Part shown: piece after piece, positions 2,854-55,102 of the stretch
How the letters are laid out: each line of letters starts with the position of its first letter
Position numbering within the stretch: position 1 is the first letter of the stretch
Origin: a virus
DNA length: 61,485 nucleotides
Strand: one strand, 5' to 3'
Virus record (IMG/VR): IMGVR_UViG_3300037067_026753
Notes under the pieces: model-generated
Databases searched by the model: none
What the model was told of the DNA's origin: nothing
What the model saw: only the letters and a program-made list of their open reading frames with translations
Position numbers and translations under genes: made by a program

Positions 2854-3323
2854 TTAGGATACACCACGACAGATTCATTTAAGAAAGTAACTTCTATCCC
2901 AGCTTGCTTAAATACATCTTCTGAAGCTGCTCCTTGATGGTATTTTTGCTTGCAAACAACACGTGCAATACCAACCTGAACTATACTCATAGCGCATCTC
3001 ATACAAGGCGTCATTGTACAATACAAAGTACCACCTTTGAGAGAAACACCAATATGTGCAGCTTGAAGTATTGCATTCATTTCAGCATGGATAGTCCTGT
3101 GACAATGTTCGGACTTTGTTCCATCCTGATGAACTACCGTTTCAAGTAAATGACCAACTTCAGAACAATCAGGAAACCCAGAAGGTGCCCCGACATAACC
3201 TGTCACCAAAATCCTGTTGTTTTTAGTAATGACACAACCAGATTTCCCTCGATCACACGTCGCTCGTAATCCAATCGTATCGACTGTCAACATGAAATAT
3301 TCATCCCAATTTGGCCGACTCAT
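2850..3323 (-). CDS. dCMP deaminase (cytidine/deoxycytidylate deaminase zinc-binding family)
   Basis: HAEMNAIL zinc-binding motif and the second motif CTMTPCMRCAMSIVQ(V)GI(A)RVV (PCxxC). Confidence 0.85.
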   Translation of the reverse strand: MSRPNWDEYFMLTVDTIGLRATCDRGKSGCVITKNNRILVTGYVGAPSGFPDCSEVGHLLETVVHQDGTKSEHCHRTIHAEMNAILQAAHIGVSLKGGTLYCTMTPCMRCAMSIVQVGIARVVCKQKYHQGAASEDVFKQAGIEVTFLNESVVVYPK

Positions 3324-6300
3324 ATACTCCTCTGCTTTCTAGAAATTAGTTTTGGTTTGCTTTCTTTGACTATTTCGTTAACAGTCTCAGAATCTGCCAC
3401 ACGTTTTTTTCTAGAAATCATTTTAATGGGTTCACCAAGTTCTAATCTAATAGCATTCGTCTCTGTTAAAGTAGCAGGTGTATCGTTCTTGAACAATTCT
3501 GTAAGTATCTCTTGCCTTGCTCCTTTCATTTTTCTCGAAATCAGCTTAGGTTTTTTAGGTTCTGTTTGTTCTGTTATTTCGGGTTGTTTTTCTGTTTGCA
3601 GATTGAATTTGCTCAAAGCATCATATCCTTCAGTGTTCTTTATTTTTGTGATATCTGACAAATAAAAAACATGATCAGAATATTTCTTGTTCTTTGCTTC
3701 TTCGAAATAAAGCTTACCTGAAACAAGATCGCCCTCTTCAATTTTCAAATCTTCTGCATCATTCAAAATACAATCATCTATTCTTGTAGTGCCATCATAA
3801 ATTGTTGCAAAATACATGATATACGGTTTTTGTGTTTTTTTGCCTATTCCAGCAAGTCTTCTAAACTTACTCACAAAAACAATCATTGGAATTGCATTAT
3901 TTCTACTCAAAGTCTTACCCTGAGCAGCAGCTTTTTCGACACCCTTTAAAGAATATTCTCTGTTTGTTGCTTCTTTCAAATCTTTTGAAACAATAAGACC
4001 TGTATGTTCAAATTGTTTTTGCAAGAAATTTGTCGTATCAATTTCTTCACCAATTTCTTTTTTGAACAACTCGACTGTATCATCAAATTTAATTGCTTCC
4101 GAATAAATAAGAGCTTTAATCACTCTTTTATTTACCACTCTTCTTGTTACTCTACTCAAAAAATCTTTAAAAGAAGTATAAGGTTGATTTTCTTGGATAT
4201 TTGTAGCAGCCTTAGACCCTACATCTTTTATATGCCCAAATGCATAACACAAAGAACCATCGGGTTTTATTCTAAACATATCAGCACCTGAATCGTTTAT
4301 GTCAGGTTTATTTATCTTTACATTAAAACTCTTTTGAATTTCTGTTACATAATTCTGAAAAAGATTTACTTTTTTGCCGTCTTGCATTGCTTCAGTATTT
4401 TCTGTGTTAGAAAGAAGAGAAGCAAAATACTCATTAGGATAATATGTTCTCAAATACATCATTATATAAGCCATCATAGCATAAGCGCAAGAATGGCTTC
4501 TATTAAACGAATATTTTGAAAAATTCTTCATTGTATCCATTATTTCTTCAATTCTTTTATCGTCATAATTTGTATTCTTATGACAACCTGCTCTAAACTT
4601 GTCCATCATATGATTAAACTCAGTATAATCTGTTTTGCCTTTAAATAGTAACTTGAAGACATGTCGAGACTCATCAGCTTCAGACAAAGTAAAGCCACCA
4701 AGTTCTTGGAATACTCTCATTGAAGATTCCTGGTACAGCATCATTCCATAAGAGTCAGCAAGAACACGTTCAAACGGATCCTGTTTTGCTTTCTCGTAAT
4801 CATAATTTTCTTTATTTTTGAGATACATTTCTAAACCGCCTGCTTGTATAACGGCAGGACGATACAAAGCGTTTATAGCAACAAGATCGACAAATTTTTC
4901 AGGTTTTGCTCTTTTGACGAACTTCGTAATGTTCTTTCCTTCAAACTGAAAAATGCTAAATGTTCTGGCTTGATTGAATTGTTCAAGTACTTTGGGATCA
5001 TCATCATTATCTATAATATCTTGTAATTTAACTTTGCCTTGTAATAATTTCAATGTGTCACTGATAATAGTGCAAGCATTTAAACCAAGAATATCAAATT
5101 TCATTAGACCAGCATCAGTCATTAATCGAGTATCACCACCTTCTGGGTACCCTGTTGCTATATTGTCACTAATCCGCATAATAGGGATGAATCGTTCTAG
5201 ATTATCAGGTGCAATAATAACACCACCTGCATGCATTGAATAATGACGGTTTTTCCCGACTAAAACTCTTGCAATATCAAATTGTTTTTTATGTTCTTCA
5301 ATAAAGTTCTTTGCCCAGTCACCTTCCAATGCAATCATTTTTTGAATTGCATCATCGAACACATCATCGTCATTTTCAAGGCATTTAGAAAGTCTATCGA
5401 CACTGTCTTTTTTTTCTGTCCCAAAATAAACTCTAAACGTATCCCTTATTGCATTCTTAATCCCGAATGTGCCAAATGAAATTACATGAGAAACAGAATT
5501 AATCCCATATTTACCCTTTAAATACTCTTCAATCTTGTATCTTGTTTTAGAATCAAAATCAAGATCAATATCAGGAGGATCTAATCTTTTTTCATTTAGA
5601 AAGCGTTCGAAATAGAGCCCATATTTTATAGGATCAATTTTTGTAATGCCAAGTAAATGAACCACTAAGCTACCGGCCCCGCTTCCACGGCCGCAGCCTA
5701 CAAGTACGTCATGTGTCTCGGCATAATTGACAATGTCAGCAACAATCAAGAAGTAATCTTCCATTCTTTTGAATTTGATTGTTTCAAGTTCTGATTTTAC
5801 TCTAGCCACATAATCAGGTCTATTGTCCCAACCTTTTTCTTTCAATGCTTCAAATGCTTTTCTCTCAAGAATTTCATATGAATTGTCAGCAAACTTAGGC
5901 ATAATAACTTCTGGCGCCCGAGTAAGCTTTACTTTTTCGATTTTGCTGTCTATTTCTAGTGTGCGATCTAAACATTGATTAATAAATTCTAGATCATATC
6001 CAAGAAATTGAGCTTCAGCAATGATATCCTCTCGTTTTTTGAGCCATAGATTTCTTGACTTATAAACTCTTTTTTGCCAACTATCGTCTTGAAATGAACC
6101 TTTAGAGTTTATAAGTTTCATTACATCATGTACTTCAGCATGTTCTGGTTTCAGATAATGTGTATCTGTTGTCCATATTAATTTTACGCCAAGACGTTTG
6201 TGATTATTTATAGCCCATTGATTAAATGCTGTCTGATCAGCCATTTGAATTTCCATAATTTCAATATAGAAATCCTCTCCAAAAGCTGACTTCATATAAT

Positions 6301-6781
6301 TGATAAATTCAATAGCTTCTGCTTCTTTGTTTTCTAAAACAAGTTTGGGTATTCTTCCACCCATACAAGCTGATGAAACAATTAAATTTTTATTGTATTG
6401 AACAAGATCTTCATAAAGGATAATTGGTTTGTAGTAGAATGTATTTCTCATAGCTTGACCAAGTAACCAGCAAAGATCTAAATATCCTTGATAATTTTTA
6501 GCAAGTAGGACTAAGTGATCACGCTCTCTTTTTTCTTCTTTGTCATCACTTTCAAATTCTTTTTTGAAAGCGCAATAAGCTTCAAGTCCAATAATAGATT
6601 TTATCCCAGCTTTATTAGCTACTTGATTGAAATAGAGAGAGGCGCATAGATTACCATGATCAGTTACACAAATAGAGGGATAATTATTTTCTTTTGCCCA
6701 TTTGACATATTCATCTACTCCGAGTAGAGCATCTCCATTTGAGAAGTCAGTATGTATATGCAGCGGTAAATAATGATTCAT
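3320..6781 (-). CDS. dnaE: DNA polymerase III alpha subunit (DnaE-type replicative polymerase with an N-terminal PHP domain)
   Basis: 1153 aa. The N-terminus LHIHTDFSNGDALLGVDEYVKWAKENNYPSICVTDHGNL is a PHP domain. The length and layout are typical of a PolIIIa catalytic core. Confidence 0.9.
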   Translation of the reverse strand: MNHYLPLHIHTDFSNGDALLGVDEYVKWAKENNYPSICVTDHGNLCASLYFNQVANKAGIKSIIGLEAYCAFKKEFESDDKEEKRERDHLVLLAKNYQGYLDLCWLLGQAMRNTFYYKPIILYEDLVQYNKNLIVSSACMGGRIPKLVLENKEAEAIEFINYMKSAFGEDFYIEIMEIQMADQTAFNQWAINNHKRLGVKLIWTTDTHYLKPEHAEVHDVMKLINSKGSFQDDSWQKRVYKSRNLWLKKREDIIAEAQFLGYDLEFINQCLDRTLEIDSKIEKVKLTRAPEVIMPKFADNSYEILERKAFEALKEKGWDNRPDYVARVKSELETIKFKRMEDYFLIVADIVNYAETHDVLVGCGRGSGAGSLVVHLLGITKIDPIKYGLYFERFLNEKRLDPPDIDLDFDSKTRYKIEEYLKGKYGINSVSHVISFGTFGIKNAIRDTFRVYFGTEKKDSVDRLSKCLENDDDVFDDAIQKMIALEGDWAKNFIEEHKKQFDIARVLVGKNRHYSMHAGGVIIAPDNLERFIPIMRISDNIATGYPEGGDTRLMTDAGLMKFDILGLNACTIISDTLKLLQGKVKLQDIIDNDDDPKVLEQFNQARTFSIFQFEGKNITKFVKRAKPEKFVDLVAINALYRPAVIQAGGLEMYLKNKENYDYEKAKQDPFERVLADSYGMMLYQESSMRVFQELGGFTLSEADESRHVFKLLFKGKTDYTEFNHMMDKFRAGCHKNTNYDDKRIEEIMDTMKNFSKYSFNRSHSCAYAMMAYIMMYLRTYYPNEYFASLLSNTENTEAMQDGKKVNLFQNYVTEIQKSFNVKINKPDINDSGADMFRIKPDGSLCYAFGHIKDVGSKAATNIQENQPYTSFKDFLSRVTRRVVNKRVIKALIYSEAIKFDDTVELFKKEIGEEIDTTNFLQKQFEHTGLIVSKDLKEATNREYSLKGVEKAAAQGKTLSRNNAIPMIVFVSKFRRLAGIGKKTQKPYIMYFATIYDGTTRIDDCILNDAEDLKIEEGDLVSGKLYFEEAKNKKYSDHVFYLSDITKIKNTEGYDALSKFNLQTEKQPEITEQTEPKKPKLISRKMKGARQEILTELFKNDTPATLTETNAIRLELGEPIKMISRKKRVADSETVNEIVKESKPKLISRKQRSI

Positions 6782-10819: not shown

Positions 10820-11865
10820 AACCAGTAAGGCTCCATTCCTATATTATTGATTATGCTTTCTATTGTCATTCTTATACCAGTTTCTAAAGGGATATACCCT
10901 TGATTACTTGCAAAATCTATCTTACAATAACGAAGTTTATCGTCAGACATGTTATGATAATGCAAGTAATCTCTTGTCCCATCAAAATCAATCCAATCAT
11001 CTATATGTCTATAAAAAACATCTGGGACGCAAATTCCTCGTACTGCAAATCTGTAAGCAACAAATTCAAAAAGCTCGAACCAAGTTTTTGAATTTGTATG
11101 ATTTTCGCCTATATTAAAAACAGGGCGATGTGAAGCACCACCAACGCAAGGAATTGTGTTGTCAAGCAATCTTTGTGCAAAACTCAAAATACATGTTGCT
11201 ATATTTTCGACTCTCGTATAAGATTTTGCAGTTCCTTTATTTAACAAAATTTTAAGTTTATGGTTTGCTGGTTGAGTGATATTCTTGTACATGATATAGA
11301 TAAATTTTGTTAGAGCACTATGCAAATCATCAGGATAATTTCCAAATCCAAAGACAGGACGTAGTACCAGATGTTTTGTGTGACATGTATTTTTTACTAT
11401 CAATTCTCCAGCATATTTGGTAATACCATAAAGAGTTTGGGGATTGATTTTTGTTTCTTCTGTCATTGGTTTCCTGGGCCCATAATCAGAAGGATCAAGT
11501 ATAGCTGTAGTCGACAAATAAATAAGCGGTATTTCATATTTATTACAAAGATCAACTATATTCTGCGTACCGACGACGTTCGTCCTTATAGCAAGACTAG
11601 GGTCCGAAGAACAATAATCAGTTCCAACAAATGCGCCTGAATGAATTACTAGATCTAAATTGCCCCAGGGCGCTCTTATCAGGTGAGACGTATCAAGGAA
11701 ATCAAGTTCAGGTTTCCTTACTTTAAAACTTTGGTGCGTTTTGAATGAGTCTAATAGTGTGTGTTCTAGTTGTGTATTGACAACTTCAAAACCAAAATTC
11801 TTTGCTATCCTTTGCATTTGCATTGGAATTGTGCCCGATTCTCCAGTTATTAAAATCTTTTTCAT
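10816..11865 (-). CDS. NAD-dependent epimerase/dehydratase (extended SDR)
   Basis: N-terminal Rossmann ILITGESG and the catalytic YGITKYAGE (YxxxK). Confidence 0.55.
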   Translation of the reverse strand: MKKILITGESGTIPMQMQRIAKNFGFEVVNTQLEHTLLDSFKTHQSFKVRKPELDFLDTSHLIRAPWGNLDLVIHSGAFVGTDYCSSDPSLAIRTNVVGTQNIVDLCNKYEIPLIYLSTTAILDPSDYGPRKPMTEETKINPQTLYGITKYAGELIVKNTCHTKHLVLRPVFGFGNYPDDLHSALTKFIYIMYKNITQPANHKLKILLNKGTAKSYTRVENIATCILSFAQRLLDNTIPCVGGASHRPVFNIGENHTNSKTWFELFEFVAYRFAVRGICVPDVFYRHIDDWIDFDGTRDYLHYHNMSDDKLRYCKIDFASNQGYIPLETGIRMTIESIINNIGMEPYWL

Positions 11866-12446
11866 TTTTGCTCCTTGCAGGCTTGTATTATAAAAGCTTT
11901 ATATTCCTCTGGTGTGCTTCTCTGATAAGAAAACACATAGCTTGGATGCCATATAGATCTAATAGGTATTTTTATATTGTTCTCTAGACATAGATCTAAT
12001 AGTATTTCAAAAACTTGTCTGCCCATAGCAATAATGATATGAGGTTTCAAGACATTAATTTCTTCTAATAAAAAAGAGAAGCAAGCTCGAGCACAAGAAT
12101 TATTTATCGCATTAGTAGATGTAGAGCAGTGAATTACATTGTCGCAAAATATCTCGTCAAACATACCTGTTTCTTTTAAGAGGTTGTTAAATTTTTCACC
12201 AGGCCCAGGGCTACCATTTACTCCTCCAAATGCGTATTCATGTCCAGCAAATCGGTTGTATGAAGGATTCATCCCGATAAACATAAAGCGGCACTTTTTA
12301 GTGCCGCCTCTCCAACCATAAAGTTTTCCAAAACCTTTAGAAATATCTTTTTTGTTTTCTTCTAGATTACATAACTCACACTTAGTACAGACTTGAATTT
12401 TTTCATTAATCTTTTTTAAGCCGTTTTCTACTTTTGGACTGAACAT
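11862..12446 (-). CDS. Uracil-DNA glycosylase superfamily protein (family 4/5-like, Cys cluster)
   Basis: FMFIGMNPS resembles the GE(A/G)PG motif A. WHPSYV resembles the HPSP motif B. N-terminal cysteines CTKCELC. Confidence 0.5.
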   Translation of the reverse strand: MFSPKVENGLKKINEKIQVCTKCELCNLEENKKDISKGFGKLYGWRGGTKKCRFMFIGMNPSYNRFAGHEYAFGGVNGSPGPGEKFNNLLKETGMFDEIFCDNVIHCSTSTNAINNSCARACFSFLLEEINVLKPHIIIAMGRQVFEILLDLCLENNIKIPIRSIWHPSYVFSYQRSTPEEYKAFIIQACKEQK

Positions 12447-16152: not shown

Positions 16153-17151
16153 TCATTTGCTCTCGAAAAGGCTTTTGTCTTTTGGATCAAGTTTATCGTA
16201 ATCATTTTCTGTATACTTTACCCAACCGTCTCTTGGAACTATTTCGACATATTTTGCTAACTCATTATAATCTGAACAACTTCTATTGAATTCAGAATAT
16301 TCAACTTCGTCTGGCCAACGACCACAACCAGCAAACAGATTACTAAAATACTTTGTCAATCCTTCTGCACCACCATGATAAATACATTTCTTTGCTCCAT
16401 CGCATGCAGGTCGTAAATAATTTGCAATCAAAGGAGTCTGTTTTTTGATTTCTTCTCTCAATTTCCAATACATAAAAACTATTGGAGATTCTTCACAAGC
16501 CATAAGCCTTCTTGCCATTTGACCTTTTAAAGAAAGCAAATCAATAGAAGTAGTAAACGAATGATTATATGACATAGGAAGAACAGCTCTTGCTGTTTGA
16601 TACGAACCACAACCAAGATTCAAAATTTCACTATATAGATCCTTTGTTGCTTTCAACCAGCTTTCAAATCTTGATTTTAAATCTGGCTTATTTTGAATTT
16701 CTTCATATAGTTCTGGGTACAAAATTAAAGGAGCTTCAGTTTTCGCGTTGTCTCTACAGCCAATACTCTGGTGTGCGGCAAGTCTGACCCTCGCGTGTTG
16801 GTCAAACATGTGCCTTGGGCCACCATTGACACCGAATTGATATTTTACATTTTCCATTGCTAAAGGTAATGTTTCACCTTGCAATGAACTTAAAACCACA
16901 ATGAATCTATTTATTGGAGACAATTTTTCCCATTTATGACAAGATCCTTCGTTAGCTCCTATTTTTGCTGAGCCCCACGTAGAACAAGCTGCATTCACAA
17001 TATTTTTATACGGGTTGCAAGGCGAATCAAAAACTTCGACAGTCAAAGCATCATAAACGCTTAAATAATCATAGGTAACATTAGGAGTTCTATCTGGTAG
17101 AGTGTCAAGTGCTTCTCTTATGTTGTCGATTTGTTCTTTAGACATTGACAT
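16153..17151 (-). CDS. Flavin-dependent thymidylate synthase ThyX-like (long form)
   Basis: RHMFDQHARVRLAAHQS resembles the RHR..S motif. ARAVLPMSYNHSFTTSIDLLSLKGQMARRLMACEE is close to the ThyX C-terminal ARxVLP...R......E segment (T. maritima ThyX, from memory). Confidence 0.5.
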   Translation of the reverse strand: MSMSKEQIDNIREALDTLPDRTPNVTYDYLSVYDALTVEVFDSPCNPYKNIVNAACSTWGSAKIGANEGSCHKWEKLSPINRFIVVLSSLQGETLPLAMENVKYQFGVNGGPRHMFDQHARVRLAAHQSIGCRDNAKTEAPLILYPELYEEIQNKPDLKSRFESWLKATKDLYSEILNLGCGSYQTARAVLPMSYNHSFTTSIDLLSLKGQMARRLMACEESPIVFMYWKLREEIKKQTPLIANYLRPACDGAKKCIYHGGAEGLTKYFSNLFAGCGRWPDEVEYSEFNRSCSDYNELAKYVEIVPRDGWVKYTENDYDKLDPKDKSLFESK

Positions 17152-18714: not shown

Positions 18715-18819
18715 AGTTTCCTCCTTTGATGTTCTAAATTATATCAAGTGAGGAAAATAAATTCACAAGTTTGTATTGGATTTATTTTTAAATATAAAAA
18801 ACTTAAAAGAGGAGAAAAA

Positions 18820-19374
18820 ATGCTTAAAATCGACAATATTGATGTATTAACTCGTTGGACAATGGTAATTGATGCTGCAAAAACTACTATTGGCAAGATA
18901 GCATCTAAGAAAGAACCTACATCGCATTGGAAGAAAATGATACTTCTTGCAGAGCATTCACCCATAAGAATTCTTTTAGTGAAGTGGAAATGGGTTGAAA
19001 TAAAATATTGGGTGAGCGTCCATTTTGTAAGACATAAAATTGGGATAGAACATTTTGTCAAATCGCAAAGATCAGACCGTACAGGCAATAATCGAGAAAA
19101 TTCTCCCCAGAATTCTCTAGTCGATCATGAGTGTGTTGCGAATGCTCAATCTATTATTAATATTTCAAGAAAAAGGCTTTGCAACAAAGCATCTAAAGAA
19201 ACACGCGAAGCTTGGCAAATATTCTTGGATAATCTAAAATTAACAGAACCAGAACTTGTAAGCGTGTGTGTGAAAGAATGTTTATATAGAGGGCACTGTT
19301 ACGAATTTGATTCGTGTGGTTATGTGAACACAGAAGATTATGCAATAGAACTTAATAATTATAGGTCGTTATAG
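18820..19374 (+). CDS. ThyX-like protein (short divergent paralog)
   Basis: Strong RBS AAGAGGAG 7 nt before the ATG at 18820. MLKIDNIDVL is like ThyX MKIDIL. EHSPIR and HFVRHKIGIEHFVKSQRS approximate HETPFEH and RHR..S..RY. Confidence 0.45.
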   Translation: MLKIDNIDVLTRWTMVIDAAKTTIGKIASKKEPTSHWKKMILLAEHSPIRILLVKWKWVEIKYWVSVHFVRHKIGIEHFVKSQRSDRTGNNRENSPQNSLVDHECVANAQSIINISRKRLCNKASKETREAWQIFLDNLKLTEPELVSVCVKECLYRGHCYEFDSCGYVNTEDYAIELNNYRSL

Positions 19375-19385: not shown

Positions 19386-20165
19386 ATGAGTATATACAAA
19401 ATAACAAATTTATTAAACAACAAGATTTACGTTGGAAAATTAAAAGACACTTCTGTTTTTGAAACTTATTGGGGTTCGGGAATTCTTATACAACGAACTA
19501 TTACAAGATATGGTATAGAAAATTTTAAAAAAGAAATATTAGAAGAAGTTGCCGATGCAAACATAAATGACAGAGAAAGATATTGGATCAAACTATTTAA
19601 CGCTTATGATATTAAAATCGGATACAACTTAACTGAGGGTGGAGAAGGTGGTGATGTTTTTTCTAAAAAACCAGATTATTTAAAAAATATCACTAGAAAG
19701 AACATGTCAAAAGCACGTAAAGGTATGAAACAAACTCCAGAATGGATAAAAAATAGAATAGGTATGATTACAGGACCAAGAAATGGAATGTTTGGGAAAA
19801 AACTATCTGAAGTCACTAGAAAAAAGATAAGTTTGAAATTAAAAGGCAGAAAATTTACAGAAACACATAAGAAGAACATGTCCAACAGTAAAATTGGTAA
19901 TAAAAACCCAATATACAAGATTTTAGCAGATCCCAAAAAATATAGAAATTTTGTGAACAAAATGTCAGCAGTGACATCTGGTAGTAACAACCCAAGAGCA
20001 TTGAAAATAATTAGATCGGACATGCATGGAAATGAAACATTAAAAGAAGCTACTTTATCAATTGCATCGACAGATAAAAATATTTATTATCAATCAAGAA
20101 AAATAAAAGAAGCAATTGCTAATAATATGCTCCATAAAGAACACAAGTGGAAATTTGCGGAATAG
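19386..20165 (+). CDS. GIY-YIG homing endonuclease with NUMOD-type DNA-binding repeats
   Basis: IYKITNLLNNKIYVGK...YWGSG...REKYWI...NLTEGGEGG GIY-YIG domain. The C-terminus is lysine-rich with repeats (NMSKARKG, NMSNSKIGNKNP). Confidence 0.8.
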   Translation: MSIYKITNLLNNKIYVGKLKDTSVFETYWGSGILIQRTITRYGIENFKKEILEEVADANINDRERYWIKLFNAYDIKIGYNLTEGGEGGDVFSKKPDYLKNITRKNMSKARKGMKQTPEWIKNRIGMITGPRNGMFGKKLSEVTRKKISLKLKGRKFTETHKKNMSNSKIGNKNPIYKILADPKKYRNFVNKMSAVTSGSNNPRALKIIRSDMHGNETLKEATLSIASTDKNIYYQSRKIKEAIANNMLHKEHKWKFAE

Positions 20166-20217
20166 TAGGGACCTTTCGGTCCTTACCAATTCCGCTGCAA
20201 CTCCTGGGTAGGAAAGA

Positions 20218-20997
20218 TCAGTTGAAGAAGGAGTTATTCGCTCCGCCGACGGTTGTCTGACTGGTTCTTATGACGGATTTGCTCACCAGATCGACAGTCC
20301 TGCGTATTTCGCTCTCGGTAGCGTCAACTGTCATTTTGTTGATGAACCCGACGGAATCAGCAATTGCACCAAGATCATCATTGGGATCCTGCTTATAACC
20401 GATATAAACAGGGTAGAATCCCTCTTTTTTCAGTGATGCATCGACGACTGTTTTGCAATCGTCAGCTGAATGCTTGCGCGAATCATTATCGTCACCATCT
20501 GAAAAAACTGCAATGATGATTTTTGACCGTACACCACTACTCTTCAGATCCTTGGCGTAAGCTTGCGCTCCGGTCAATGCATCCATAAGAGCATCATACA
20601 GCGCCGTTGAACCACCTTTTGCAGCATACTGTTTTTCGATGGGACCGATATCTGTGGATTTTTTGAACCCATGGAGGATGGTTGCCCGTGTCGAAAAAAC
20701 AACCGTACTCACGAGAATCGAGCCACCCTGTTTTGAGCCTTTGAAGGAATTGATGAATTTGTCGTAGCATTCCCTGACGGTATTCTCATGCATGTTCATC
20801 GACAATGAACCGTCAAGGAGCACCTTAACCAGGGTGACATCGTCCGTTTCGATATCATCTACCGAAGCGCCCAAGCACCCGGTGAGATTTGTTCCGTTCA
20901 AACTGTTGATCATCAATGCTGATGCGGCCGGATCCATTGTCTGATCGTTCTGAAACAAGGATTGAATATCACCAACAGTTGGTTGACTTCCTGCCAT
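20218..20997 (-). CDS. von Willebrand factor A domain protein (TerY-like)
   Basis: MIDAS motif LLDGSLSM (DxSxS) and a downstream AVFSDGDDND. The region has elevated GC. The tracked ORF starts at 21108; an internal Met with a GGAAGG RBS at 20997 is the likelier start. Confidence 0.55.
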   Translation of the reverse strand: MAGSQPTVGDIQSLFQNDQTMDPAASALMINSLNGTNLTGCLGASVDDIETDDVTLVKVLLDGSLSMNMHENTVRECYDKFINSFKGSKQGGSILVSTVVFSTRATILHGFKKSTDIGPIEKQYAAKGGSTALYDALMDALTGAQAYAKDLKSSGVRSKIIIAVFSDGDDNDSRKHSADDCKTVVDASLKKEGFYPVYIGYKQDPNDDLGAIADSVGFINKMTVDATESEIRRTVDLVSKSVIRTSQTTVGGANNSFFN

Positions 20998-21016
20998 ATT
21001 AAACCGCCTTCCTATT

Positions 21017-21958
21017 TTAAAAGATTTTGTCTGTGCTATTGACGATGTGTACGCCTTCTTTGATGAAGCCGTCGAACTGTGCTTCAGCAATAGCATCGAA
21101 ATCGACATCCGGATTCTTGACCGAGCTCATGCAGTTTCTCAGGATCCATATCTTCTCGAGAATTGCAGTCTGTCCCTTGAAGAAAGCGATCAGCTGCCTG
21201 AGGGATTCAAGCACGCAGTGCGACTTTGCTTCGCCGACGACTATGATTTTGTCGTATTTCCCGAGTACATTGCAGAATCCCGTATTGATACCGGATGCCC
21301 TGGGGTTTTTGGGTACCAGGACTTCGGGCCGGAAAATACCATACATTTCGGTTTCCGGTACGTCGCCTTTGATTTGGAAACTGATTTGCGACCGGCGAAT
21401 CAATGCGTGGTAGTAAAGGATTTCATAGAGCGCCGGTACGAGAGCATGTCCCGGTGTACCGAGCATGGTGTGTTCCGGCCAGATAATCAGGGGCTGTTTG
21501 GTTTGTGCTTCGAGTGTTTTGATGTAATCAAGCGACCATACAGGGTCGATGACCGGTTTGAATTTGCCTTTTTCCACGTCTGCGGCCGTGATGAACGTGA
21601 ACGGCGCCGGATGCTGACCTTTTTCATCGAGCCACCAGTTCCCGTAGAAAATTTGGAAAACCAGGTGGGTATCGAGAGTTGGATAGATTGTTGTGATTCT
21701 ATCCATGTGCTCGAGAATGAAATCGATAATGTTGAACATATCCATTTCAGCATTATCAACGTACAGTTGACCGGTAGGCCGTGGGCAACAGAAATCCACC
21801 TGACAGTCAATTGCGAGTAATGCCGTTCTCTGTCCAGGTTTATCCATTACCGATGGTATTGGAGTAAGGCGAGCGGCCTCTTCCTTTACCCTGGTGATGT
21901 CTGGGACATATAGAGCCCCAATCTTCGACTGATCAAAGAAACTTGGTTTGGACGCCAT
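21017..21958 (-). CDS. Isochorismatase-family cysteine hydrolase (nicotinamidase PncA-like)
   Basis: ALLAIDCQVDF (compare ALLVIDMQNDF) and IVVGEAKSHCV (catalytic Cys region). Confidence 0.55.
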   Translation of the reverse strand: MASKPSFFDQSKIGALYVPDITRVKEEAARLTPIPSVMDKPGQRTALLAIDCQVDFCCPRPTGQLYVDNAEMDMFNIIDFILEHMDRITTIYPTLDTHLVFQIFYGNWWLDEKGQHPAPFTFITAADVEKGKFKPVIDPVWSLDYIKTLEAQTKQPLIIWPEHTMLGTPGHALVPALYEILYYHALIRRSQISFQIKGDVPETEMYGIFRPEVLVPKNPRASGINTGFCNVLGKYDKIIVVGEAKSHCVLESLRQLIAFFKGQTAILEKIWILRNCMSSVKNPDVDFDAIAEAQFDGFIKEGVHIVNSTDKIF

Positions 21959-21971
21959 ATCTGAACTCCTT

Positions 21972-23846
21972 CTATTTAATAAGTCTTAAAAATTTGGCAT
22001 CATGTTCCGAAACAGCTAATATTCCATCTTTATATATTGACAAAGAACAACCTGAGTCAACAAATTGTTCAGTTTCTTTCTTGAGAGTAAATTGTCCTTT
22101 TCGCTCGATTACTATCCCGGCATCCGTAGGATGTACTATAGAAGAACCGAGTAGAATTTTCCCTTCGATAGTTTTCAAGAATGGAGAACTTATTGATTCT
22201 TCTTTTTTAGAATCGAGAATTTTTCCTTCATCATCAATCAAATAATAATAGGAATAAGTTCGACCTTTGTCCAAAGTTTTAAATAAAAACAAGACAGTAC
22301 CTCTTGAAATTTCAGCACAATACTCAATAAGTTGTCCTTGAATCGAAGGAATTGCAGTTTCGTATCTACCTTTACCTGAAAAAACTACAAAATAGTATTG
22401 TTGGAATATCCTGTAAAACAAGATACCAAGACCGGATGGACCTACTGCAAACCATGTTTGATTTTGAAGCGTTTGCATTACGACAGTATCAGTCAGATTG
22501 CCTTGTACGACTTCTGTCGCAATCAAAGCTTGATCCGTCAAACGGTATAATTTTGAACCGCTACAACCAATCATAGTCTTATGGTCAAATTGTAATGTTG
22601 TTGTCTTTGCTACAGGTTTGAGTTGATTACCAGCAAGTTCGACGACCATGAGGTAGTTTGTTCCCACGACAAGGTAATTTTTGAAGAAATCAAAAACCGT
22701 ATCACGTTTATGGCCATCCCAAATTTTGTGGGTGTATCGAGCTTTTTCTGTTATTTCATGCACTTTGGTTTGACTACCAGCATATTCAACGATAATTACT
22801 CTATTGTCCTCAAGAACTTTAGAATAGAGTATTGAACCCTCGGTTTTAAATATTGTTTCAGACAAACATTTACCTGCATCTACGGTATGAGTAACCACTA
22901 TATGGGTTATGAGTGGTGCTGGTTGAACTGTTGTAACAAAGCACACAGGACATTTCGCTCTTCCTTTATAATACCAACCGTTACATTGATTGCATTTTTC
23001 AAATTGGTTTTTATGTGCTGTTAAAAGAGCAGCCGGTATATCAACCCTTTCGCCAAGCCTGAATATTTTGTCAAAGATGTCAAGCAATTCTGGGCTTATA
23101 GTTTCAGGTTTATTCGAAATCCTTGGATATGTTACTGAAGAATCCATGATATAGATTTTTCTTCTTGCTCTTTCGACAATAGAATCGTAGGTTGCATGAG
23201 TGCCGCCATAAGGGTGTGCTAAAAGTAGACATTTGAAAAGCATGACGGCAAAACTATACCAATCTGTTTCTTTTGTGAAATACGGTTTATCAGCAAGATT
23301 GAGCCCGTAAAGATTTGGATCAAGATAAGTATCTGTTCCTACAGCACATGGCCAATCACCAACCTGGAACGAATCGACATCTATGTAAATAGAACCAAAT
23401 TTCGGGGTAAACATTACATTCAAATCGTTATTGTCTCCGATAAATAATCTTGGTGCAACATGTATTGCATCCATTGTCAGTTTTGAGTCTACAAAAAAAT
23501 CAATAATATCATTAGGAGTGATTTGTTCTGTTTTCCTGAATTGTTTATTGGAAAGATTGATTACTTCTTTACCTTTTGCTAAAGGCATGGAAAATCCCAC
23601 GATGTCATTACCTCTTGCGTCCAAGATGACATCAATGGGATAAGCTATATTTGTTGGGAGTTTAAGACTTGAACCCACTTTTATAAATGCTAAAAGTTTC
23701 TCAGCCCTCGTTTTTGATGGTTGATGATAAACTTTTAGAGCTACTCCTTTATGAAGGACTACAGTAGCTTCACCACCGACACCTAATGCACTGGTATCAT
23801 CTACTAAGATCTTGTCATTCTTGTAGATTACTGTTTTGGTCGCCAT
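21972..23846 (-). CDS. Ser/Thr protein kinase-like protein with central zinc ribbon and C-terminal beta-rich domain
   Basis: Gly-loop LGVGGEATVV, VALKVY (VAIK-like) and DVDSFQVGDW (DFG-like). CNQCNGW...CPVCF zinc ribbon. Confidence 0.5.
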   Translation of the reverse strand: MATKTVIYKNDKILVDDTSALGVGGEATVVLHKGVALKVYHQPSKTRAEKLLAFIKVGSSLKLPTNIAYPIDVILDARGNDIVGFSMPLAKGKEVINLSNKQFRKTEQITPNDIIDFFVDSKLTMDAIHVAPRLFIGDNNDLNVMFTPKFGSIYIDVDSFQVGDWPCAVGTDTYLDPNLYGLNLADKPYFTKETDWYSFAVMLFKCLLLAHPYGGTHATYDSIVERARRKIYIMDSSVTYPRISNKPETISPELLDIFDKIFRLGERVDIPAALLTAHKNQFEKCNQCNGWYYKGRAKCPVCFVTTVQPAPLITHIVVTHTVDAGKCLSETIFKTEGSILYSKVLEDNRVIIVEYAGSQTKVHEITEKARYTHKIWDGHKRDTVFDFFKNYLVVGTNYLMVVELAGNQLKPVAKTTTLQFDHKTMIGCSGSKLYRLTDQALIATEVVQGNLTDTVVMQTLQNQTWFAVGPSGLGILFYRIFQQYYFVVFSGKGRYETAIPSIQGQLIEYCAEISRGTVLFLFKTLDKGRTYSYYYLIDDEGKILDSKKEESISSPFLKTIEGKILLGSSIVHPTDAGIVIERKGQFTLKKETEQFVDSGCSLSIYKDGILAVSEHDAKFLRLIK

Positions 23847-24579
23847 TTTGTTTCTCGATTACTATGCAAGTTGCGTCATCCCCAAAGAGTTTTTGATCAT
23901 GCCACAAATTGAACTTTCTTTGAAGTTGACGTTTGTGCGTTCCATATAATTGCGAATCTAATCCATTATCAATAAGAGGCTGAATTCCATCTGTCCCTAT
24001 GATAATGGAATCAATTTCGTTTTGATCAAAAACTTTTATTGTAAAAAAACTAAGTTCAGTTGGCCGTTTTTCAAGGGCTTCTTTGGGTATGGCCTTGTAT
24101 GCAATATATTCAGGTGTTCCTGCTTGATGAATTTCGTGTATTTGTTTATTTAAAATGATGATTCCATCACCACAATTTCCGACAATTACTTTGTCGTTTA
24201 CCAAGATAGTAAACAGACATGTACTCAAAAGCATTTCCTTGACAAAGGAAATGCGTTCTGGTACCCAAACGTCATCAAAGAACAGAACCCCGAGAAGACG
24301 TTTTACAAAAAGATCTAATTCATATTCGATTAAATCTTTTAAACGTTCGGAGTCAATGACTTTGAATTTAGCATCTTGTAAAGTTCGCACAAAATTTACA
24401 ATATATGTGCCTATGAGAGTAGCACCCACTTCCGAATATTTACTTTCCCCACACCCATCGCACACTGTCGCTACTAAAAGCTCTGGTGTTTGATGGGAAT
24501 GAGCAAAGTCCTGCCTATTCTTAAATGAGAGCTGATGGTCTCGACCGACAATAGAAGCAGTGTTAATAAACCAATTCAA
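23815..24579 (-). CDS. PP2C-family Ser/Thr phosphatase
   Basis: VCDGCGES resembles the DGxGG metal site; IIIGTDGIQ resembles the C-terminal SDG motif. Confidence 0.55.
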   Translation of the reverse strand: MNWFINTASIVGRDHQLSFKNRQDFAHSHQTPELLVATVCDGCGESKYSEVGATLIGTYIVNFVRTLQDAKFKVIDSERLKDLIEYELDLFVKRLLGVLFFDDVWVPERISFVKEMLLSTCLFTILVNDKVIVGNCGDGIIILNKQIHEIHQAGTPEYIAYKAIPKEALEKRPTELSFFTIKVFDQNEIDSIIIGTDGIQPLIDNGLDSQLYGTHKRQLQRKFNLWHDQKLFGDDATCIVIEKQNGDQNSNLQE

Positions 24580-24591
24580 TGCTTTTCTCCT

Positions 24592-24987
24592 TTAATAATT
24601 GAGAAGCAGTTTGGCGCCCTTGGAATTTGACAGATCAATGACCAACGGTCCCAAAAGAGTTTTGAGAGCTGTCTGGTCAGAAACCGTTTTCCACCTGCGA
24701 TTGATATGCGTATGTGCTGCCTGAATAGAAATCAGATCGCTTGCACGCCTGCCGTAACAACGCCGGATGAAACCGACATCATCATTCTTTGTCGCAAATT
24801 CAGCAAGGACATAACCCTTTTTGGTAGGCAAAACGCCGATACCGTTGAGGCGCATGTTCCTGATGATTCGGAATATCGAGCACGGTCTCAAATGACACCG
24901 TTCTGCTAACTGTTTTGCTGTCTGGTACTCATTTTCGATAAGTGCCTGATGCACCTTCTCTACCATTTCAATTGACCTGGGTTTCAT
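24592..24987 (-). CDS. Winged-HTH transcriptional regulator
   Basis: Helix-turn-helix (QTAKQLAERCHLRPCSIFRIIRNM) followed by a wing. Confidence 0.45.
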   Translation of the reverse strand: MKPRSIEMVEKVHQALIENEYQTAKQLAERCHLRPCSIFRIIRNMRLNGIGVLPTKKGYVLAEFATKNDDVGFIRRCYGRRASDLISIQAAHTHINRRWKTVSDQTALKTLLGPLVIDLSNSKGAKLLLNY

Positions 24988-25415
24988 AGTCCTCCTTGCA
25001 TCGTTAAAGATTCACGGAAAATTGCGGCTGCTTCGCTTGCTTCGATTAAAGCGGTCGCGCTTTTTTGATAGAAAAGAGATTTCTTGAGCATATCAGCGAG
25101 ATTTGCAACATCTTCAGAAGATAAATTTTTGATTTTCTTTGAAAAACCTTGAGGTAACGAAAACCCTGCAGGAAAGGCCGGAGGTTCATGCTGATCGACA
25201 ACAGCAAGAAGATTCGATTTCCTCGTTCCTATAATCTTATACTTAAAATCGATACTTTTGATTTTTTGCCCAGTTTTCTTTTCGTTGAAAGCAAAAACTG
25301 CACTATATAAAGACTGCTTTGTTATATTGAGAGCAGTTAAAATTTCAGGTGCTGTCATACCGTCCGGATTTGCTTCTAACAATCGGGCTATTTTAATTTG
25401 AACTGTTTCTTTCAT
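24984..25415 (-). CDS. HTH DNA-binding protein
   Basis: N-terminal HTH (MTAPEILTALNITKQSLYSAV). Confidence 0.4.
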   Translation of the reverse strand: MKETVQIKIARLLEANPDGMTAPEILTALNITKQSLYSAVFAFNEKKTGQKIKSIDFKYKIIGTRKSNLLAVVDQHEPPAFPAGFSLPQGFSKKIKNLSSEDVANLADMLKKSLFYQKSATALIEASEAAAIFRESLTMQGGL

Positions 25416-25639
25416 TTTTCACTGTTCCTTTTTTGAAGGCCAAGTTTTAATAGATATCTTATTTCATTTTGAATAGTACGGTCGTCTTCTGCAGCAGCTT
25501 CAATGATTTCTCGATATGTTTGTTCTGTTACACGTAAGCTCGTCATGCCCAGTGTAGCTATCAATCTCTCTCCACTACTTTTCTCAACAGTTTGTTTTTT
25601 CATATTAGCATTACGTATATTTCTATGTCGCATTTGCAT
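25412..25639 (-). CDS. Ribbon-helix-helix (Arc/CopG-like) protein
   Basis: 75 aa. TSLRVTEQTYREIIEAAAEDDRTIQNEIRYLL follows a beta-strand plus two-helix pattern. Confidence 0.45.
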   Translation of the reverse strand: MQMRHRNIRNANMKKQTVEKSSGERLIATLGMTSLRVTEQTYREIIEAAAEDDRTIQNEIRYLLKLGLQKRNSEK

Positions 25640-25739
25640 GCGTGGATTGAAACATATGAACTATAATCTATAACATTTGCACAAACAAGGGTTAACAAAA
25701 ATTCACATTTTTTTACCTTGTTCGAACAAACAAAATAGT

Positions 25740-28292: not shown

Positions 28293-29975
28293 TTAGAATT
28301 TTGAAAGTTTCCATGACTGAGCAATTGGTATTCTTCGTCCAAAACCAAATGCTTTCCTATGTAATTTAATACCTAAAGGAGCCTGCCTGCGTTTGAATTC
28401 GGCGTTCTTGATTAGCTGACAGACTCTTTTTACTGCTTCAGGATGTTGATCAGCAATAATTTTGTATTTTTCGTATTCTGCAGGATCTAACCAGTCGCCT
28501 TCAATAAAGAGCTCGAGCAAAGCATCAAGAACAGGATATGGTGGCAAACTGTCGACGTCCTTTTGTCCGGGAGCCAATTCAGCGGAAGGCGCCTTATCAA
28601 TGATCGCTTGTGATATTGCTCCCGGGTATAATGTGTTATAATAAGCAGCCAGTTCATAAACTTTCATTTTGGGTAGATCGGAAATTGGAGAGAGACCGCC
28701 GCACATATCCCCATACATAGTACAATATCCGACAGACAATTCGCTCTTATTTCCTGTCGAAAGGACTAAGTATCCAAAACGATTCGAGTAAGTCATAAGG
28801 ATCATGCCACGAATACGAGCTTGCAAATTTTCTTCAGCAATTCCCGTTTTTTCAGGTGTTCCAAAGCATTTGTTAAATTCTTTGAGAATTGTTTCATAGA
28901 TTCCCTTAATGGGAAGAGTATGAAAATCTATGCCAAGATTTTTGCAAAGAGCCTCTGAATCTTCATAACTTCCGGTCGATGAATATTCCGAGGGCATTGT
29001 ACAACCCATGACTCTTTTAGAGCCAAGAGCTTCTTTTGCAACAGCAGAAACAACAGCGCTGTCTATACCACCAGATTCTCCTATAGCCACTCCTTTGAAA
29101 CCACACTTTGTAACATAAGAACGAACACCGCATACTATTTGCTTGAAATAAAATTCGGCATTCGAAGCATACGGTATATGTTCAATACCACCAGGTGACA
29201 TGCCATGAGTGTGATAAGCAAGCATTAAAGAATCAATTTCAGATCGTTCCTGAACAAAATCCCCCGACTTGAGGATTATAGCACCACGTTTGTTTGTGAC
29301 AAAGCTGTTACCGTCAAAAACAATGTCATCATTACCACCAACCTGATTGACGTAAACAATGGGCATTGCATATTGCTTGCTGATCCGCTTTATCATTTCG
29401 ACTCTTTCTTGATGTTTTCCGACAACAGAAGGAGAGCCGTTGATTGAGATAATGAATTCGACATTTGCATTGAAAAGATCTTCAACAGGATTTATTGTAT
29501 AAATTGAATTGTTGTACCACAGATCCTCACAGATAACAATTCCAATACGTATGCCGCGAAATTGAAAAATGCCCGGTTTTTCTCCCGGTTGAAAATAACG
29601 AGACTCATCGAAAATATCATAGGTAGGTAGTAACCTTTTCCTGTAGTTGTATATGACTTCACCTTTATAGCAAACTGCAGCCGAATTATAGAGCTTTTTC
29701 CCATGGCCTGTATTTTTTTCTACATAGCCGATTATAATTGGAGAATTGATTTCTTTTGTTTGTTCGAGAAACCATTTTAATGCTTCGTCTTGATCTGCAA
29801 GAAAAGCTGAATAATCGACTAAATCAAGAAGAGGATAGCCAGGGATAGTGAGTTCTGGGAAAACATACATGAAAACGCCATTGTCAGTTTTTTGCTTTAT
29901 AAAGTCGATAACTTTTTGAGCATTCCCCATAAAATCACCAACAATCGTGTCGATCTGACATAAGACAATATTCAT
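28293..29975 (-). CDS. nadE: Glutamine-dependent NAD+ synthetase (NadE, CN-hydrolase plus PP-loop synthetase)
   Basis: The N-terminal nitrilase-like domain has the catalytic Glu in VFPELTIPGY and a Cys in VICEDLW. The C-terminal SGGIDSAVV is a PP-loop ATP pyrophosphatase motif. Confidence 0.85.
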   Translation of the reverse strand: MNIVLCQIDTIVGDFMGNAQKVIDFIKQKTDNGVFMYVFPELTIPGYPLLDLVDYSAFLADQDEALKWFLEQTKEINSPIIIGYVEKNTGHGKKLYNSAAVCYKGEVIYNYRKRLLPTYDIFDESRYFQPGEKPGIFQFRGIRIGIVICEDLWYNNSIYTINPVEDLFNANVEFIISINGSPSVVGKHQERVEMIKRISKQYAMPIVYVNQVGGNDDIVFDGNSFVTNKRGAIILKSGDFVQERSEIDSLMLAYHTHGMSPGGIEHIPYASNAEFYFKQIVCGVRSYVTKCGFKGVAIGESGGIDSAVVSAVAKEALGSKRVMGCTMPSEYSSTGSYEDSEALCKNLGIDFHTLPIKGIYETILKEFNKCFGTPEKTGIAEENLQARIRGMILMTYSNRFGYLVLSTGNKSELSVGYCTMYGDMCGGLSPISDLPKMKVYELAAYYNTLYPGAISQAIIDKAPSAELAPGQKDVDSLPPYPVLDALLELFIEGDWLDPAEYEKYKIIADQHPEAVKRVCQLIKNAEFKRRQAPLGIKLHRKAFGFGRRIPIAQSWKLSKF

Positions 29976-44848: not shown

Positions 44849-44868
44849 ATTTTTACTCGTTAAAAAAC

Positions 44869-44940
44869 TGGGGTAGAAGGATTTGCACCTCCGACACCCG
44901 GCTCCAAGGGCCAGCGTTCTTCTACTGAACTATACCCCAA
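44869..44940 (-). tRNA. tRNA-Gln (anticodon TTG) with a non-canonical anticodon loop CCUUGGA
   Basis: Cloverleaf folds by hand, with a U1-A72 pair and G73 as expected for Gln. Anticodon stem CTGGC/GCCGG. Position 33 is C. Confidence 0.6.
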
Positions 44941-44953
44941 TAAATTTCAAACT

Positions 44954-45026: not shown

Positions 45027-45031
45027 AAAAA

Positions 45032-45108: not shown

Positions 45109-45126
45109 TTGTTCAAAGAACTTAAA

Positions 45127-45201: not shown

Positions 45202-45205
45202 TATT

Positions 45206-45280: not shown

Positions 45281-45286
45281 ATAAAA

Positions 45287-55100: not shown

Positions 55101-55102
55101 AA

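Follow-up and report, generated by a model that had tools for sequence, protein, structure and literature searches.

The stretch of DNA analysed here, called the window throughout, is the 61,485-nt viral record IMGVR_UViG_3300037067_026753 from IMG/VR, with a mean GC content of 0.345. It carries a cassette of four genes, all on the minus strand and read in the transcript order PP2C phosphatase, Ser/Thr kinase, nicotinamidase-like hydrolase and vWA protein. From the conserved active sites and the gene context we infer a function for this cassette, and the reading that we favour, if only modestly, is that it encodes a phosphorylation-regulated nicotinamidase module that would feed the Preiss–Handler salvage of NAD+. 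The genome is that of a huge phage, since the cluster exactly matching the window kinase (P0001, which includes one NCBI entry for a metagenome-assembled genome labelled 'Candidatus Nanoarchaeia archaeon') has a largest listed contig of 424 kb, and the IMG/VR viral contigs carrying relatives of the cassette span 42–545 kb; the initial annotation had likewise described the genome as phage-like. The cassette and its 3′ end comprise the following features.

23815–24579, minus strand: PP2C-type Ser/Thr phosphatase, PphC-like, 254 aa, TTG start (Pfam PP2C_2)
21972–23846, minus strand: YegI-family Ser/Thr kinase with a zinc ribbon and a 7-bladed β-propeller (AlphaFold2, Foldseek, hhalign)
21017–21958, minus strand: nicotinamidase-like (PncA/Pnc1-like) metal-dependent cysteine hydrolase, 313 aa (AlphaFold2, Foldseek, profile match)
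20218–20997, minus strand: vWA protein, 259 aa, with an intact metal-ion-dependent adhesion site (MIDAS) and a Ser-rich C-terminal tail (Pfam VWA, family alignment)
20157–20195, minus strand: GAAA-tetraloop hairpin, putatively the terminator or 3′ end of the cassette transcript (folding, conservation in the related locus L023)

The nicotinamidase-like hydrolase

The AlphaFold2 model of the hydrolase has a pLDDT (predicted local distance difference test) score of 95.4, and its best Foldseek matches are all nicotinamidases: PncA from Acinetobacter baumannii (2wta; E 1e-13), yeast Pnc1, Leishmania PNC1 and Pyrococcus PncA, with target-normalised TM-scores (TMt) of 0.73–0.81. Matches to other isochorismatase-fold amidases (biuret, maleamate and carbamoylsarcosine matches) are worse by 3–6 orders of magnitude in E-value, and the profile of the hydrolase family matches Pnc1 with an E-value of 3e-7. 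In an alignment of 50 hydrolase sequences, D51, K197 and C248 are invariant and align with the catalytic residues D8, K122 and C167 of Pnc1, while the equally invariant D96, H98 and H163 align with its Zn ligands D51, H53 and H94. The Asp-His-His metal site of nicotinamidases (PncA/Pnc1) binds the pyridine nitrogen of the substrate. The earlier description of this protein as an isochorismatase/nicotinamidase-like cysteine hydrolase is thus borne out by the fold and by the invariance of both residue sets.

The hydrolase shares with PncA and Pnc1 (2wta, yeast 2h0r and M. tuberculosis 3pl1) the isochorismatase fold, the Asp-Lys-Cys triad and the Asp-His-His metal site, but exceeds them in length by about 100 residues, having an N-terminal extension of 45 aa and a longer stretch inserted between its two metal-binding segments. 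The sequence identity to these enzymes is only 16–19%, and the nicotinamidase activity is a predicted one. Unlike PncA and Pnc1, the hydrolase is always paired with a vWA gene; an isolated hydrolase was seen at L021, a 1.87-Mb contig, with no vWA, kinase or PP2C neighbour detectable there.

The hydrolase gene also contains antisense open reading frames (ORFs) at 21047–21820 (plus strand, 257 aa) and 21027–21413 (plus strand, 128 aa), which are partly kept in L023 and are most simply explained as a side effect of the high local GC content combined with a conserved sense frame.

The vWA protein

Judged by the N-termini of its homologs, the vWA protein starts at M38 of a 296-aa ORF. It matches Pfam VWA with 33.8 bits (cut-off 23.8), and among 15 family members the MIDAS residues D62, S64, S66, T131 and D167 are conserved, with D62, S66, T131 and D167 invariant, so that the intact MIDAS motif reported by the initial annotation stands. 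The Ser-rich C-terminal tail, which includes S239, S241 and S246, is also conserved (VSxSxIRxSQ). Several homologs were named 'YegL' by the Joint Genome Institute (JGI), and hhalign detects a weak similarity to E. coli YegL (probability 55.7%, E 1e-4) in which the Ser-rich tails align. When the protein was compared with 72,556 plasmids by tblastn, no TerY-annotated gene was among the matches listed.

The kinase and the PP2C phosphatase

The AlphaFold2 model of the kinase, built with 53 homologs, has a pLDDT of 90.3. Foldseek matches residues 1–270 to protein kinases and the C-terminal 300 or so residues (about 320–624) to 7-bladed propellers such as the BPB domain of DDB1; between the two domains lies a CxxC..CxxC zinc ribbon (C285, C288, C299 and C302, all invariant). 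An atypical kinase fused to a zinc ribbon and a β-rich domain had been proposed from the sequence, and the β-rich part can now be specified as a propeller, which presumably serves as a sensor or partner-binding domain. The Pfam kinase match on the window protein is itself sub-threshold (25.5 vs 31.7 bits). The residues G24, G25, E26, K38, D138, N143, D156 and D158 are invariant, and the family profile aligns with E. coli YegI across the kinase domain and the ribbon (hhalign 99.5%, E 3.7e-22). The two families have in common the motifs GxGGE, KIYHxP, VGDxN, IDxDSFQ and HPYxG and the CPxC ribbon, and S159 of the window kinase, within IDVDSFQ, aligns with Ser-162 of YegI by a manual count on the hhalign output that allows for a two-residue length difference between strains. 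Ser-162 is an essential autophosphorylation site of YegI (10.1101/819920).

The phosphatase matches Pfam PP2C_2 with 59.7 bits (cut-off 24; E 3.9e-16), its alignment with E. coli PphC starts at residue 1 and is weak (24% identity, E 0.009), and in nearly every locus the kinase gene has a PP2C homolog upstream. The overlap between the kinase and PP2C genes is exactly 32 nt, as had been noted together with the PP2C assignment.

Comparison with known triads and NAD+ gene sets

The TerY-P triad is described in PMC11090510 and PMC4978471 as a TerY-like vWA protein, a PP2C phosphatase and a Ser/Thr kinase with a C-terminal zinc ribbon. Like the triad of Anantharaman, Iyer and Aravind (2012), as these sources summarize it, the window cassette is compact and co-directional and combines a MIDAS vWA protein, a PP2C and a kinase–zinc ribbon protein; unlike the triad so summarized, it has an extra propeller on the kinase and, linked in nearly every case, the nicotinamidase-like hydrolase as a fourth gene. 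Ter genes, McrBC/CoCoNuT, helicase–nuclease, WXG100/FtsK or DNA restriction/processing partners were found neither in the window nor in the annotated flanks of its relatives.

E. coli K-12 carries the gene set yegL-pphC-(yegJ)-yegI, of which the kinase and phosphatase have been characterized biochemically by Rajagopalan and Dworkin (10.1101/819920, 10.1101/303594). Both systems combine a vWA protein with a PP2C and an atypical kinase of the Hanks type, in each of them the genes for phosphatase and kinase either overlap or adjoin, and the Ser-rich tail of the vWA protein is similar to that of YegL. In contrast, the kinase described here ends in a soluble 7-bladed propeller whereas YegI has a membrane-spanning C-terminus, the E. 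coli operon has no nicotinamidase-like gene and begins with the vWA gene, and the vWA protein and PP2C are only weakly similar to YegL and PphC (55.7% probability and 24% identity, respectively). Because the kinase is homologous to YegI, the triad is classed here as TerY-P/YegL–PphC–YegI-like, and the TerY-P label given by the initial annotation holds at the level of domain architecture and of this kinase homology.

The stand-alone, TerY-P-like system for defence (Gao et al., 2020), as outlined in PMC11090510, has the same vWA, PP2C and kinase architecture, with an OB fold at the kinase C-terminus; relative to that outline, the cassette differs in its propeller and in the lack of any defence-island context in the loci seen. 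PADLOC 2.0.0, for which the presence of TerY-P models was not verified, gave no match for the vWA protein, the PP2C or the hydrolase, and only weak matches of the kinase to PD-T4-6 and mad6 (E about 1e-3). The NCBIfam search returned nothing useful for the vWA protein, the PP2C or the hydrolase.

Phage NAD+ gene sets comprise NadV/NadM/NadR (PMC9503650, PMC7824862) and the pncB-nadD-nadE clusters of gut jumbo phages (PMC11662467). The present loci resemble them in the clustering of salvage enzymes in large phages, with NadE in the window and nicotinate phosphoribosyltransferase (NAPRTase, PncB) beside the cassette in relatives, whereas the published sets are described without a kinase, phosphatase or vWA layer and without the long nicotinamidase-like family. 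The literature consulted on TerY-P/YegI triads, jumbo phages and viral NAD+/ADP-ribose metabolism (PMC7824862, PMC9503650, PMC11662467, PMC12484599) ties no nicotinamidase-like gene to the triad, although a mention in the original 2012 TerY-P paper remains possible.

NAD+ genes around the cassette

A co-directional gene for NAD+ synthetase lies 3.7 kb upstream of the cassette in the window, with Pfam scores of 235 bits for NAD_synthase and 96 bits for CN_hydrolase.

28293–29975, minus strand: glutamine-dependent NAD+ synthetase NadE, part of the context and not of the cassette (Pfam NAD_synthase, CN_hydrolase)

NadE and/or NAPRTase occur within 10 kb of the cassette in eight of about 16 distinct phage lineages, compared with some 5–10% expected by chance (a rough estimate, with about 20 kb sampled of genomes of 200–500 kb), and at several Patescibacteria loci. 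NAPRTase and NadE lie directly upstream of the PP2C gene in L002, NAPRTase lies directly upstream of the cassette in L010, both genes lie between PP2C and kinase in L018, and NadE or NAPRTase is found within 10 kb in L001, L004, L009 and L019. In the WWE3 loci L033 and L039 NAPRTase directly follows the vWA gene, and in L070, a Falkowbacteria contig, NadE and NAPRTase flank the cassette; PncB is adjacent in L002, L009, L010, L018, L033, L039 and L070. Short and long nicotinamidase-like enzymes can coexist in one locus, as seen in L070.

The best plasmid match to the vWA protein is a gene of a Variovorax megaplasmid that follows a 'cysteine hydrolase' 29% identical to the window enzyme (E 8e-29). 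This pair has no kinase or PP2C and lies among genes for a macro-domain protein, two Nudix proteins, a nucleoside 2-deoxyribosyltransferase and an NAD kinase; in Peptoclostridium, a relative of the vWA protein is encoded after an O-acetyl-ADP-ribose deacetylase. Because the kinase-less Variovorax pair sits among NAD/ADP-ribose genes, the hydrolase and the vWA protein would form the core of the cassette, tied to NAD/ADP-ribose metabolism, and the kinase and PP2C would be a regulatory add-on. The division into two sub-units is also suggested by the permuted gene order of the Anaerolineae loci.

Distribution and inheritance of the cassette

The order PP2C–kinase–hydrolase–vWA is kept in every fetched phage locus that spans the cassette, across about 16 distinct lineages in which the kinase identity falls from 89% to 25% and the genome GC content ranges from 31% to 58%. 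Exceptions among the phages are L020, where the kinase match is only partial and a hydrolase is not detectable, and L014, in which the vWA gene lies upstream of PP2C. In one phage lineage (L002, 11874–12158; also L003 and L007) a gene for a 94-aa RRM_1 RNA-binding protein is located between kinase and hydrolase.

The bacterial scan, with one genome per GTDB species, gave 489 kinase relatives, from which 80 loci were kept. The same four-gene order is present in 37 of these, and the permuted order hydrolase–vWA–PP2C–kinase in ten, all of the Anaerolineae type; in most of the remaining loci the locus is truncated by a contig end, or the flank shows no more than PP2C and kinase. Chloroflexota, Patescibacteria and Myxococcota make up most of the carriers, among which are Mb-scale contigs and an isolate, Ktedonospora formicarum SOSP1-1 (L078). 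Candidatus Chlorohelix has the cassette on its chromosome, between housekeeping genes (tRNA synthetase, GreA).

The closest relative, L023, has syntenic flanks and protein identities of 80% (PP2C), 89% (kinase), 91% (hydrolase) and 93% (vWA), and its hydrolase and vWA genes have GC contents of 0.44 and 0.43, compared with 0.33 for the locus. Pairwise distances of the four proteins correlate with r values of 0.82–0.89 over 62 loci, and the ranking of the nearest neighbours of the window is essentially alike for all four (L023, L001, then L024, L006, L002 and L009, with L024 lower for PP2C). In a neighbour-joining tree of the concatenated distances the bacteria group by taxon and the phages form two deep clades with some stragglers. 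A separate replacement of the hydrolase–vWA segment, considered when the next-best database hydrolase was found to be 74% identical, is ruled out by the identities of 91% and 93% in L023.

Positions 18–28 kb gave no megablast match among 50,697 GenBank phage records, and tblastn of the kinase and the hydrolase returned only distant matches to the uncultured huge phages LR756511, LR745208 and LR756500 and to one fecal contig, with no cultured phage among them. The PncA-like protein of phage G (PMC12484599) was considered as a relative and set aside, with no phage G record among the tblastn matches.

Several contigs from metagenome-assembled genomes are probably mis-binned or mislabelled: the 'Candidatus Nanoarchaeia archaeon' entry of P0001, L024 and L025, and L034, L044, L046, L056 and L065. 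L024 (33 kb), labelled 'Spirochaetales', has a cassette that falls within the phage clade; L025 (15 kb) has a kinase that is also near the phage versions (42% identity); and the 'uncultured Pseudomonadales' contigs group with Collierbacteria/Patescibacteria.

The cassette is therefore an old conserved module common to many bacteria and huge phages and was not recently acquired.

Base composition and codon usage

In successive 500-bp segments across 20001–22000 the GC content is 0.41, 0.46, 0.49 and 0.45, and at 24501–25000 it is 0.45; the only comparable peak in the window is a tRNA array at 45.0–45.5 kb. Of the GC rise described by the initial annotation, the parts at 20.2–21.9 kb and 24.5–25.0 kb are thus real, whereas at 25.0–25.5 kb no rise is present (0.366). 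The values for individual genes, with GC3 denoting the GC content at third codon positions, are as follows.

Hydrolase: GC 0.482, GC3 0.56
vWA gene: GC 0.465, GC3 0.49
131-aa gene (upstream of PP2C): GC 0.457, GC3 0.49
Kinase: GC 0.363, GC3 0.27
PP2C: GC 0.367, GC3 0.30

The other 74 genes of the window have a GC3 of 0.259 ± 0.055 with a maximum of 0.43, so that the hydrolase, vWA and 131-aa genes lie 4–5.5 standard deviations above the background. The kinase, PP2C and two small genes have the background composition, and the kinase and PP2C genes sit between GC-rich ones. The shift is selective: in the GC3-rich genes, relative to the background, the codon fractions are raised for TTC (0.81/0.22), ATC (0.59/0.17), TAC (0.52/0.17) and CAG (0.70/0.21), and likewise for CTC/CTG, CCG and ACC, while GAT, GAA and AAA are barely altered and still preferred. 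Because the Asp, Glu and Lys codons are spared, a uniform mutational or donor GC difference can be ruled out.

The pattern recurs in the relatives. In all phage relatives the GC content of the hydrolase and vWA genes exceeds that of the kinase and PP2C genes and that of the flanks, and among 62 loci the hydrolase and vWA genes use more TTC in 54 (p 4e-9) and more CAG in 47 (p 2e-7) than the kinase and PP2C genes, with no difference for GAG. Among the bacterial four-gene loci the GC3 of the hydrolase and vWA genes is higher in 41 of 50 (Wilcoxon p 3e-7), and the largest excess is found in AT-rich Patescibacteria. The GC excess is a matter of the codon usage of the hydrolase, vWA and 131-aa genes and fits stronger translational selection, and hence higher expression, better than a foreign origin. 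As a point of method, an abrupt local rise of GC3 in an AT-rich phage can reflect gene-specific, conserved codon usage instead of recent transfer.

The window also contains 17 tRNA genes on the minus strand, at 44867–45364 and 52540–61341, although the ARAGORN calls at 52540–52624 and 54132–54205 are possibly false, given that they overlap ORFs. G/C-ending codons of rare use in this AT-rich genome are read by several of the tRNAs (Gln-CTG, Pro-CGG, Pro-GGG, Arg-CCT, Ser-CGA, Thr-CGT and Leu-TAG), and the codons read match those over-represented in the hydrolase, vWA and 131-aa genes (CAG, CCG, CCC, AGG, TCG and CTG).

Flanking features and other genes of the window

The following features adjoin the cassette or lie elsewhere in the window.

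24592–24987, minus strand: conserved small protein of 131 aa, possible winged helix–turn–helix (HTH) protein (sub-threshold profile matches)
24984–25415, minus strand: small protein of 143 aa, lineage-specific, possible N-terminal HTH (sub-threshold profile matches)
25412–25639, minus strand: small protein of 75 aa, ribbon–helix–helix (RHH)-like pattern by eye only (direct sequence inspection)
19386–20165, plus strand: GIY-YIG/NUMOD3 homing endonuclease, free-standing, outside the module (PHROG 314, NUMOD3)
3320–6781, minus strand: DNA polymerase III α subunit, bacterial type (PHP, NTPase, finger and HHH_6 domains; PHROG 405, E 2e-245)

The hairpin has its core at 20169–20182 and an extended stem at 20157–20195, lying 23–61 nt downstream of the vWA stop codon in a convergent intergenic region. 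The 76 nt containing the stem have a minimum free energy of −28.2 kcal/mol (z −4.3), and the core, GGGACCTTTCGG(T/C)CC, is also kept downstream of the vWA gene in L023. The hairpin placed at 20170–20190 by the initial annotation is therefore a real structure, putatively the 3′ end or terminator of the cassette transcript. The adjoining GIY-YIG endonuclease, also noted earlier, is confirmed by PHROG 314 (E 4.7e-33) and NUMOD3 (32 bits); it is absent from the corresponding 38-bp intergenic region of L023. Because the L023 site has the hairpin core without the endonuclease, the latter is an independent insertion beside the 3′ stem-loop and not a mobility gene of the cassette. GIY-YIG/NUMOD3 endonucleases occur at differing sites in these phages: after the vWA gene in the window, after ThyX in L001 (15649–16389) and between NadE and NAPRTase in L018 (7564–8220); a short ORF of the window (47805–48068) resembles the L001 endonuclease.

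Three small HTH/RHH proteins had been proposed upstream of PP2C. The HTH matches are sub-threshold and confined to the 131-aa and 143-aa proteins, and the RHH assignment is unproven. The 131-aa protein matches HTH_24 at E 0.015 and winged-HTH regulators among PDB profiles at E 0.09–0.3; it is found only in the closest relatives (80–82% identity in L023, 64% in L001), and its gene has the GC3-rich codon usage in common with the hydrolase and vWA genes. The 143-aa protein, with homologs in L023 and L001 only, matches HTH_23, MarR_2 and HTH_20 at E 0.03–0.06 and the HTH of ComA and BirA at E 0.03–0.15. The 75-aa protein, for which profile searches gave no family match, more probably starts at M13 (25412–25603), is conserved in L023 and L001 and has an LRVT–helix–helix pattern by eye.

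Besides these features the window encodes NadE, ThyX, an RNA ligase, ParB-like and AAA proteins and the tRNAs. The polymerase III α gene (3320–6781, minus strand; PHROG 405) is a candidate phage replicase. Two ThyX-like genes are present, at 16153–17151 (minus strand) and 18748–19374 (plus strand). One is a clear ThyX (Thy1, 46 bits), only 59% identical to its L023 counterpart where neighbouring proteins are 80–93% identical; the other, of 208 aa and on the plus strand, has a weak Thy1 match (E 6e-4) and is taken as real and not a fragment because it is conserved in L023 (55% identity), where it also lies on the strand opposite the cassette. A uracil-DNA glycosylase-like gene of L001 (19119–20825, 568 aa) contains an intein with Hint, Intein_splicing and endonuclease domains, and its orthologs in the window (11862–12446, 194 aa) and L023 (192 aa) are intein-free.

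Proposed function and alternative explanations

All four proteins keep their catalytic or metal-binding residues, and their genes have been inherited together across huge phages and bacteria. In the mechanism that we propose, the YegI-family kinase and the PphC-like PP2C would form a reversible phosphorylation switch (sub-unit 1), and the nicotinamidase-like hydrolase and the MIDAS vWA protein, possibly of the YegL/TerY kind, would form its output pair (sub-unit 2). The hydrolase would deamidate nicotinamide to nicotinate, which would pass through NAPRTase, an adenylyltransferase (presumably the host NadD) and the phage-encoded NadE (28293–29975) to NAD+. The kinase and phosphatase would tune the output of the hydrolase–vWA pair, the likeliest phosphorylation target being the conserved Ser-rich tail of the vWA protein or the hydrolase itself. 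In the phage, NAD+ may thereby be kept up or restored during infection, including after a host NADase has released nicotinamide; such a counter-defence role, in which NAD+ is restored after NADase immunity, is plausible but less certain than the salvage function.

Several points weigh against this proposal. The window hydrolase scores below the Pfam isochorismatase cut-off (20.9 vs 27 bits), and its substrate could be another amide. Within the 61-kb window neither a NAPRTase nor a NaMN adenylyltransferase was identified: no ORF matched the NAPRTase of L002, and the searches did not extend to NadD. In the flanks examined, an NAD gene is lacking from most Chloroflexota loci and from about half of the phage ones. 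L070 encodes a canonical 223-aa isochorismatase-family protein (1793–2464) beside NadE just upstream of the cassette, and because of this short enzyme the long hydrolase need not be the only PncA of the organism. The higher expression suggested above is deduced from codon usage only, and the proposals on what the kinase phosphorylates and on what the vWA protein does are purely conjectural; substrates are not known even for E. coli YegI (10.1101/819920).

The alternative that survives best, although we regard it as unlikely, is a generic stress- or metal-sensing switch, as in the original TerY-P hypothesis, in which the hydrolase would act on a non-NAD amide or as a ligand sensor and the proximity of NAD genes would be an incidental clustering of auxiliary metabolic genes. 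The window region is indeed rich in nucleotide-metabolism genes (ThyX, a dUTPase_2-like protein, polymerase III α and RNA ligase), isochorismatase-fold enzymes act on many amides (the biuret, maleamate and carbamoylsarcosine matches being examples), and many bacterial loci have no nearby NAD gene. However, the Asp-His-His metal site is invariant together with the Asp-Lys-Cys triad, nicotinamidases lead the structural matches by 3–6 orders of magnitude in E-value, and NAD genes are directly adjacent in independent bacterial lineages, including that of the kinase-less Variovorax pair.

Less probable still is that the cassette, as a TerY-P-type system, serves in anti-phage defence or superinfection exclusion and is carried to exclude competitors, with the hydrolase as effector or helper. 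Phages are known to carry defence systems, TerY-P-like modules whose kinase has an OB fold act as stand-alone defence and TerY-P triads accompany restriction systems, as far as PMC11090510 describes them, and the weak PADLOC matches of the kinase concern PD-T4-6 and mad6. Yet the vWA protein, PP2C and hydrolase match no PADLOC model, no nuclease, toxin or other effector is linked, and a nicotinamidase has no obvious toxic activity; in Chloroflexota and Patescibacteria the cassette follows taxon-congruent inheritance among housekeeping neighbours and not in defence islands, and the NAD salvage neighbours point the opposite way.

The explanation offered by the initial annotation, a recently acquired GC-rich island whose TerY-P cassette is mobile, serves signalling or counter-defence and may have travelled with the homing endonuclease, is highly improbable: the base composition of three genes is clearly atypical, the endonuclease and hairpin abut the cassette and the existence of bacterial homologs means that cell–phage transfer happened at some time, but the same gene order and GC excess recur in related huge phages, down to L023 with its identities of 89–93%, which is the outcome that the initial annotation had itself named as refuting an island, the four genes co-diverge and rank their neighbours alike with kinase and PP2C at background composition, the codon shift is selective and recurs in bacterial loci, the endonuclease is a separate insertion next to a hairpin that L023 has without it, and the module, for which a mobile signalling or counter-defence function in the phage is still conceivable, also occurs in Chloroflexota and Patescibacteria as an operon that is chromosomal and taxon-congruent.

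Conclusions

TerY-P/YegI–PphC–YegL triads are widespread and, to our knowledge, what they control has not been established by anyone. In the present cassette such a triad is tied to NAD+ salvage genes and to an enzyme whose active site can be read, which gives it a testable output in nicotinamide deamidation and NAD+ pools. A further step, which we put forward only tentatively, is that the cassette represents an undescribed, phospho-regulated entry into NAD+ salvage, in which a YegI-type kinase, a PP2C and a vWA protein control, or are controlled by, a nicotinamidase, and which together with phage NAPRTase and NadE would constitute a third, deamidating route to NAD+ in phages, possibly answering the nicotinamide burst from host TIR/SIR2 NADase effectors. 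If true, this reading would also provide triads of the TerY-P/YegI–PphC–YegL type with their first physiological output. Phage NAD+ reconstitution routes are central to escape from NAD+-depleting immunity, and a candidate regulated Preiss–Handler branch would join those already known. In Patescibacteria, the retention of the cassette in minimal genomes suggests that it is important for their cofactor economy.

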